Shown piece after piece: positions 36,968-38,634 of a stretch of 64,000 bases of DNA. Source of the DNA: Escherichia phage BEU44; sequence record OM632670.1; one strand, given 5' to 3'. The notes beneath the pieces were generated by a model that had not been told where the DNA came from, searched no databases, and saw only the letters and a list, made by a program, of their open reading frames with translations. The first letter of the stretch is position 1, and each line of letters starts with the position of its first letter. Both the position numbers and the translations under genes were made by a program.

Positions 36968-38634
36968 GCGGTCATACCCCGTTTAATACTATCCCCAATG
37001 AAGGTTATTGCTGCGAAACACTTAATGACCCAATCGTTGATAAGATGATTGGTAATGCTTACTACGTTGTTAAGTTCGTAGCATTACGAATGACCTTTAT
37101 TAAAAATGTCAGTGATAATATGACTCAGCTACTTGCTATCCATAACAAGTTAACTGAGTTATCTGCTATCTACACTAAGCTAGATGAACTACAACTTATC
37201 CATAATAATTTGGATAAGTTACAGGAACTCTACAATCAATTATCTAAACTGACTGGTCTATATGACAATCTTCAGGCATTGCTAAGGGTCTATGACAACC
37301 TGACCCCAATCAATACTGTAGCTTCTAACATTGACATAGTTAATACAGTAGCAACTGATATTGCTAAGGTAATTATTGTTGCTGCTCAAATTGATAAGGT
37401 AGTTACTGTTGCTGATAACATTACTAATGTGAATACCGTTGCTGGTTCCATTAATGCTGTTAACACAGTAAGTACTAATATCAATGCGATTAAGAATGTG
37501 AATACCAATATGGCAGCATTGCTTGATTTGGATAATCACATGACTGAACTACTGGCTGTACATGCCAGGTTAGGTGACTTAGTTACCATTGCAGAGCAGC
37601 TTGATACAATCATTGCTGACCATGAAAAGTATGCTACTGCTGAAGGTGCAGGTCTGATTGGCTTTAATCAGGCACAGACTTATGCAGCCAATACAGTAGG
37701 TGCAATGCTCCGTCAGGTTATTACTATGGGCAATGACAAAGGTGGTTATGCTGTAGCCGGTAAACTGACTTCTGCCCGTGGAGTATGGTCGTTAGCTACC
37801 GGTTCCATCAATATGAATGCCCCTACTGCCGGTGCAGTAGCTAACCTGGTTCTTAATTATAAAGCTGGTAAAGTTAGCGGCTTGTTGGTAGCACCTAGTC
37901 AACAAATGGCATTAGATGGCCTGATTATGGGTGCATCTACTGCTGACAATACAGCTACTGTATCTGTTACTGCCCCACTCCGTTTTAAAGCAGACCTAAC
38001 TGCTAAAGCAATCTCCGGTGTGAATACCCGTATCATGCCCTCCAGTGCAGTGACCCTGAATGTAGATGCATATGGTGGCATCACTCTTGGGTATCCACCT
38101 AGTCTTCAGACTGTAGAACCAGTGATGACTTTCATTACTCCAACAGGTAAGGCTCCACTGACTCCACGATTCTCCAGTGTTACGGCAGGGGCTGCTGTAT
38201 TGGTTATGGTTGGTGAAGCAGAAGCACAACTGAAATATTCAGGTGGTGGCTGGGCTGCTGTATCTGATTGGGATTCGGGTACTTATTGTGCATTCGATAC
38301 AGCATCTGGTGAGTTAACGGTATATCACAGTACTCTTATCAAAGATTCTACTGTTACATTTAGCTTACTGTTACCTACCGATGGTACTCAGCTTACGGCA
38401 CAACTGAAGAGTCATACCGATAGTTCCTTCGTATTGAAGATTGCTAAACCAGATGGTTCTTTACTTGATGCCCCATTGGAAGGTATGGGTATCATGTACT
38501 CTCGTGGTATGCACGGAATCTATAAAGTACCTTATGGTTCTCTAATCGTAGATGTCGGTCGTGTTCAGGTTAAATTCAATGAATTTAACACCACGGAAGG
38601 TATTTCCGTTGTTGGTATTAACTCCAACGCTTAA
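36964..38634 (+). CDS. fibrous protein with 11-residue repeat array (candidate appendage/tail fibre)
   Basis: About 15 tandem hendecad repeats ([21 protein letters not shown], etc.) in residues 45-210; ATGA overlap with upstream gene. Confidence 0.4.

Follow-up and report, generated by a model that had tools for sequence, protein, structure and literature searches.

An uninterrupted array of ten-residue repeats as the probable shaft of the gp66 appendage in the N4-like Escherichia phage BEU44

The appendage protein of the N4-like Escherichia phage BEU44 carries, directly behind its N-terminal anchor motif, 18 tandem units of ten residues (decads) in one unbroken register, in which the hydrophobic core positions 4, 7, and 10 give a spacing of 3-3-4. 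We consider it probable that this array is the shaft of an N4-like appendage that consists of an anchor, a parallel and largely helical rod of three chains, and a distal domain. The window, i.e., the whole stretch of DNA that was analysed, comprises 64,000 nucleotides of the phage genome (OM632670.1). An earlier reading of its letters (the original prediction) had reported about 15 tandem repeats of 11 residues at 37100-37600 (residues 46-212) in a late structural protein. A strongly periodic array is present at this location and is placed here at residues 40-219 (Table 1), but its period is 10 and, counted from the end of the anchor motif, its units number 18.

Results

The repeat-bearing protein is gp66 of the N4 family

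The open reading frame (ORF) that bears the repeats encodes a protein of 556 residues, which we identified from its sequence as gp66, the "60 kDa appendage" of coliphage N4. At the DNA level, the ORF is 100% identical to its counterparts in Escherichia phages BEU5, BEU13, BEU14, and BEU42 and 97.1% identical to that of N4, where gene 66 is annotated as "appendage, 60 kD VP"; at the protein level, 12 of the 556 residues differ from N4 gp66. A phmmer search matched residues 1-556 to PDB 9lc0_A (E=0), and the "60 kDa protein" chains in 9LC0, 9YF4, and 9YF5 were matched over the full length of the protein; phrog_29955 ("appendage") also matched residues 1-556 (E=0). The gene lies in the late operon and is flanked by the ORFs of adaptor gp67 and sheath gp65, as in the N4 gp66 family. 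N4 gp66 and the protein studied here share the length of 556 residues, the gene order gp68-gp67-gp66-gp65-gp64, and the decad array without an indel, and we found no difference of substance between them. In N4, cryo-EM revealed 12 trimeric gp66 appendages on the gp67 adaptor, with the N-terminus of the trimer modelled on the tail over residues about 1-80 (PMC13434306). Given the near-identity of the two proteins, gp66 of BEU44 is likewise expected to form homotrimers, 12 per virion. The late virion protein and tail appendage of the original prediction is N4 gp66, trimeric and attached at the adaptor; the protein and its role as an appendage are already known, and a spacer is an ordinary function for such an array.

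The stop codon of gp67 overlaps the start codon of gp66 in the sequence ATGA, and AGAGAGG lies upstream; this arrangement suggests that adaptor and appendage may be translationally coupled. The 41-nt gap between gp66 and gp65 contains a G+C-rich perfect palindrome, AGGCCGGGAAACCGGCCT, which a scan scored as terminator-like on the minus strand. On a larger scale, the GC skew flips its sign near 32 kb, being negative before and positive after this point, in keeping with leftward genes giving way to the late structural operon, which runs rightward.

Table 1. Features of the gp66 locus, with positions in the window
Feature	Position	Strand	Basis
Terminase gp68	34616-36250		Neighbour order as in N4
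Head-to-tail adaptor gp67, docking partner of gp66	36257-36967	+	Pfam SU10_adaptor (E=1.1e-7); N4 annotation
ATGA overlap of gp67 stop and gp66 start	36964-36967		
gp66, ORF of 556 aa	36964-38634	+	
N-terminal anchor, residues 1-39, with a conserved stretch holding an 18-letter motif; docks the appendage on the tail adaptor	36964-37080	+	Conserved in Achromobacter-phage appendages; N-terminus of trimer modelled on tail in 9YF4/9YF5 (PMC13434306)
Match to the tail fibre chain 9d80_D, residues 1-51	36964-37116		Anchor-family profile
Array of 18 decads in one register (10 aa or 30 nt per unit), residues 40-219, core positions 4/7/10; predicted trimeric helical shaft	37081-37620	+	Autocorrelation, Fourier, 30-nt repeat families, motif spacing, AlphaFold2 helix
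Antisense ORF of 85 aa	37282-37539	−	
Junction after the array, residues 220-236, with G-x-G/S-x-[LIV]-G-[FHTY] motif	37621-37671	+	Motif recurrence in relatives
GAGLIGF, residues 228-234	37645-37665		
C-terminal 331 residues, 226-556	37639-38631		
Distal domain, residues 237-556 and stop, presumed glycan-binding; sequence orphan	37672-38634	+	Homologue search; AlphaFold2 pLDDT ~30, scattered strands
Palindrome in the gp66-gp65 gap	38642-38659		
Non-contractile tail sheath and receptor-binding protein gp65	38676-42824	+	Pfam NCTSP_N, TIM-barrel_NCTSP; N4 annotation

The array has a period of ten residues with a 3-3-4 core spacing

The hydrophobicity autocorrelation of residues 45-220 peaked at lag 10 (r=0.60, z=8.0 in 2000 shuffles) and was also high at lags 20, 30, and 40 (z=6-7.3), with lag 10 stronger than lag 20. 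The periodicity claimed by the original prediction is hence real and far from chance, but it is one of ten residues. Values were negative at lag 2, lag 5 (z=-3.5), and lag 11 (z=-1.9), and the signal at lag 7 (z=2.9) follows from the 3-3-4 spacing itself. The same period was found in the DNA, where self-identity at lag 30 nt reached 52.5% versus 31.4% in codon shuffles (z=10.9) and a repeat search returned families spaced 30 nt. The motif [LIVM]xx[LIVM]xx[LIVM]xxx[LIVM] matched 17 consecutive times, at residues 43, 53, and so on to 203, each exactly 10 apart. Both sequence features of stammer-type decads (10/3), the ten-residue period and the 3-3-4 core spacing, are found in the array.

The Fourier spectrum had its maximum at 3.34 residues (10/3 = 3.33), and the value was alike in the Leu/Glu/Lys-rich decads (residues 40-114) and the Asn/Thr/Val-rich decads (residues 115-184; peak 3.32). 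As a control of the method, the same calculation on the rod of T7 gp17, which is built of heptads, gave 3.51, and a canonical heptad coiled coil was rejected for gp66 on this difference. The hendecad of the original prediction, a right-handed 11/3 coiled coil of about 15 units, retains practically no probability. The four 11-mers quoted for it all occur in the protein, and the one observation in its favour is that segments of eleven residues look amphipathic by eye; however, the autocorrelation at lag 11 is negative where that at lag 10 is at its peak, lag 33 in the DNA gave z=-0.5 compared with the 10.9 of lag 30, the Fourier maximum does not fall at the 3.67 of 11/3, and the register drifts when the sequence is written in rows of 11, whereas it is perfect throughout residues 40-219 in rows of 10.

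Tandem Repeats Finder reported no repeat in 36900-38700, and the units are 60-73% identical at the DNA level; the null result indicates that they are old and diverged in their DNA, with no recent duplications. Within the array, 7 substitutions separate N4 from the phage studied here, all of them (7/7) at non-core positions. The 85-aa antisense ORF listed in Table 1 lies wholly within the array; most likely it is no gene but arises from the periodicity of the codons.

Deposited models cover the first decads, and a helix is predicted throughout the array

According to Foldseek, the deposited gp66 chains hold 91 (9lc0_B), 88 (9lc0_C), 69 (9lc0_D), and 72 and 68 (9yf5 chains) modelled residues, so that the experimental structures reach no further than the fourth or fifth decad. 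When PDB sequences were searched with a consensus decad array and with the homologue P0007, only gp66 itself was returned. AlphaFold2 modelled the full-length monomer with a helix from residue 23 to 225, broken at 52, 72, and 112; its pLDDT was 70-76 at residues 30-100, below 50 for much of residues 115-180, and about 30 in the C-terminal 330 residues, in which the distal domain was not folded. A monomer of fragment 1-95, modelled with the anchor-family alignment, formed one helix over residues 23-94 (pLDDT 74-86). Superposition of the AlphaFold2 models on the solved 9lc0/9yf5 chains gave TM values of 0.33-0.48, which do not confirm the helical state of decads 1-4. From the AlphaFold2 helices, we infer that the helix runs through the whole array. 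The predicted structure is an extended helix with a period; the globular, non-periodic fold that would have spoken against the original prediction was not obtained.

The original prediction had offered a coiled or beta-solenoid fibre. Its fibre stands, as the periodic region is best read as a fibrous shaft, but the beta-solenoid conflicts with the 3-3-4 spacing, the lack of a signal near two residues, and the helices of both AlphaFold2 runs. Triple beta-helices are common among phage fibres, and a fibre of this kind, either a triple-stranded beta-helix or a beta-spiral in which each decad makes a strand and a turn, might be considered for residues 115-184 at least: beta-branched residues and Asn abound in these central decads, their Chou-Fasman beta propensity (1.15) exceeds the alpha propensity (0.99), and it is here that the AlphaFold2 confidence drops. 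We nevertheless judge it improbable, since this segment keeps the 3-3-4 spacing and the Fourier peak of 3.32 with no peak near 2.0-2.3, the lag 2 autocorrelation is negative, the register continues unbroken into the flanking Leu/Glu/Lys-rich decads, which are typical helix formers, and AlphaFold2 predicts a helix.

A monomeric solenoid of short repeats, resembling leucine-rich repeats (LRRs) or pentapeptide repeats, was suggested by weak matches to the LRR proteins YopM and IpaH (profile E=1.3e-5, with no single stretch reaching significance) and to designed pentapeptide-repeat proteins (E of about 1e-3). It is very improbable, because the LRR signature LxxLxLxxNxL occurs once in the 556 residues, the base period is 10 instead of 20-22, with lag 10 exceeding lag 20, the negative value at lag 5 rules out pentapeptide repeats, and the protein is a trimer in the virion (PMC13434306).

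The decad module is widespread in podovirus fibres

Homologues have only the N-terminal 15-51% of gp66 in common with it. A phmmer search with residues 43-222 against 1.84 billion cluster representatives returned 440 clusters at E<=1e-3, including 59 at E<=1e-10. In 185 collected proteins, the longest in-register hydrophobic run at period 10 comprised 10-50 units (median 21), whereas periods 7, 9, and 11 gave median runs of 8-9 units, which is the background level; Fourier peaks in five tested relatives were at 3.33. An alpha/beta coiled coil built of nonads or hexads, with two core positions per unit, was rejected, as the period is 10 with three core positions and runs at period 9 had a median of 9 units versus 21.

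The consensus decad of the relatives is A-[T/G]-N-I-A-N-V-N-T-V. Among 934 decads taken from them, residues of the N-cap type (N/D/S) occupy position 3 in 67%, Gly clusters at positions 2, 1, and 9, and positions 5 and 2 are enriched in Pro; some relatives have Pro and Gly in each decad, for example P0015 with "IDTVAPHVGN". Two relatives, P0029 and P0036, contain a second subtype, "LDSLYADKxT", which is more charged and more helix-like and occurs in 8-10 repeats, in register with the canonical "NVNTVAxNIx" decads.

Cultured carriers of the module include N4-like phages of Escherichia, Achromobacter, Erwinia, and Vibrio, Pseudomonas phage inbricus, Alteromonas AD45-type phages, T7-like Pelagibacter phages, and Synechococcus phage S-TIP37. 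Wherever the annotation of the matching gene is informative, it reads tail fibre, appendage, tailspike, or EPS depolymerase. The array lies in these proteins between an anchor, which is either of the gp66 type or the N domain of the T7 tail fibre (PF03906), and varied distal domains (pectate-lyase-like, C1q, Collar, GDSL esterase, Laminin_G_3, S74 chaperone, and Mtd). Placed between an anchor and varied receptor-binding domains, the array sits where a fibre has its shaft. For the decad array itself, Pfam has no family, and a search of open-access texts for decads or 10-residue repeats in fibres, or for motif strings (NVNTVA and others), found nothing relevant.

Unit number is constant among N4-like coliphages and shifts by whole decads in distant relatives

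The original prediction proposed that variation in repeat number could tune fibre length. In 14 N4-like coliphage genomes, the gene aligns over its full length in a single piece, which indicates that the number of units is invariant in this group; an active polymorphism was not found there. Differences by whole decads do occur among 16 more distant proteins that share the gp66-type anchor, whose units in unbroken register number 10, 10, 14, 17 (four proteins), 18 (four proteins), 19, 20, 21, 21, and 22. Alignment gaps among these anchor relatives are whole decads: the gap in P0012 spans exactly 10 residues and that in P0004 about 40. The tuning of length is plausible at the level of the family, but not as a current variation within the phage group of BEU44.

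The array is flanked by a conserved anchor and an orphan distal domain

A profile of the anchor family matched the N-terminus of a solved 1086-aa "Tail fiber protein" (PDB 9D80/9D81, chain D; E=1.1e-5). Pfam Phage_T7_tail (PF03906) did not match the gp66 anchor, though it does match other decad-bearing proteins. The junction motif, GAGLIGF in gp66, recurs right behind the array in about 11 of the 16 relatives that share the N-terminal anchor, despite their differing distal domains, and may mark the transition from the rod to the distal domain. For the C-terminal 331 residues, no homologue outside the N4-like coliphage cluster was found among 5.8 billion proteins.

Discussion

Taken together, the uninterrupted 3-3-4 register, the AlphaFold2 helix, the anchor and binding domain on either side, the whole-decad indels, and the substitutions at non-core positions favour a helical shaft. 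In such an appendage, residues 1-39 would fix three gp66 chains to the gp67 adaptor, a dodecamer below the portal, so that 12 trimeric appendages arise, and the hydrophobic positions 4, 7, and 10 of residues 40-219 would form the core along which the chains join in a rod that is parallel and largely helical. A helical rod would have a computed length of about 27 nm (180 residues x 1.5 A) and would act as a rigid spacer that sets the reach of the distal binding domain from the tail. The lineage-specific distal part (residues 220-556) would then make the first reversible contact with a surface glycan, the NGR exopolysaccharide, before gp65 engages NfrA. This last step follows what has been put forward for N4, whose appendages were proposed to bind the NGR exopolysaccharide reversibly before the interaction of gp65 with NfrA (PMC13434306); a glycan-binding role of gp66 has been proposed or presumed (PMC13434306, PMC12892993). 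Over evolution, the length of the rod would shift by whole decads, and the reach would thereby change while the register of the three chains is kept.

This layout of an anchor, a trimeric rod, and a distal binding domain is shared with the T7 tail fibre gp17, and marine T7-like phages have the decad array directly behind PF03906, where T7 has its rod. The two fibres differ in that the gp17 rod is heptad-based (3.51) and anchored by PF03906, whereas gp66 is decad-based (3.33) with an anchor outside the reach of the PF03906 model. The phi29 head fibre, which is trimeric and has short helices with periodic turns, could be analogous should the decads prove to be punctuated helices; however, its period is 26 residues compared with 10 in gp66, and the two have no sequence similarity. 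On account of its period, the phi29 supercoil was rejected as a solved example of the same repeat.

Several observations count against a smooth helix. The AlphaFold2 models are monomers, and their confidence is below 50 in the Asn/Thr/Val-rich residues 115-180. The enrichment of Gly and Pro in the decads of relatives, which in P0015 extends to every unit, also argues against a smooth, continuous alpha-helix. Furthermore, Hartmann, Lupas et al. (eLife 2016; PMC4786415) placed the lower limit of alpha-helical coiled coils at 10/3 = 3.33 residues per turn, and this stated limit counts against an array that is helical without interruption. By standard geometry, a continuous periodicity of 3.33 with an undistorted helix (3.63 residues per turn) would require a left-handed supercoil of about 8.8 degrees per residue, and the computed pitch of about 60 A, which is about 2.5-fold tighter than that of heptad coiled coils (about 150 A by the same formula), is implausibly tight.

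Among the closest known cases are stammers, single "decads" in trimeric coiled coils, which are absorbed by a short 3-10 helical segment (PMC4786415). Stammers and the gp66 array have the same 3-3-4 spacing, the same periodicity of 3.33, and the same trimeric context, but stammers are single insertions, whereas gp66 has 18 consecutive decads (10-50 in relatives) without heptads. The alpha/beta coiled coils described in that study resemble gp66 in being trimeric fibres of short period that place small or N-capping residues at set positions; they differ in that they allow periods of 6 or 9, with the beta-layer after position c or g, instead of 10 (PMC4786415). N-cap residues at position 3, together with Gly at the first two positions and Pro at the fifth, hint that each decad could be a short helix followed by a cap or 3-10 turn. 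Based on these sequence preferences, it is conceivable, though somewhat doubtful, that the array represents a distinct and undescribed trimeric architecture, in which each decad would contribute about two alpha-helical turns and one 3-10 or capping turn to a nearly straight rod of three chains. A cap or 3-10 turn in every decad would relieve the strain and make the rod straighter.

If such an architecture exists, the array would be a fibre module that is widespread among podoviruses and has escaped annotation (at least 440 protein clusters, with 10-50 units in the collected proteins), as well as the first natural case of a continuous 10/3 periodicity, the limiting case of coiled-coil theory. 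Because 10/3 is regarded as the extreme limit and has been seen only in single stammers (PMC4786415), a solved structure of the array would reveal how a bundle of helices accommodates overwinding that is continuous.

For the biology of the phage, little changes: gp66 is a known appendage, and a rod-like spacer between its anchor and its binding domain is what one would expect. The continuous 10/3 periodicity is a modest structural curiosity, and modest interest also attaches to the widespread unannotated module and to the orphan distal domain. As a natural linker whose length can be adjusted in steps of ten residues, the decad array may be of use to engineers. For the family, the module is common in the fibres of N4-like and marine T7-like phages, where it is without a Pfam family or a solved structure, and a definition of the module would help to annotate their receptor-binding proteins and to parse these into domains.
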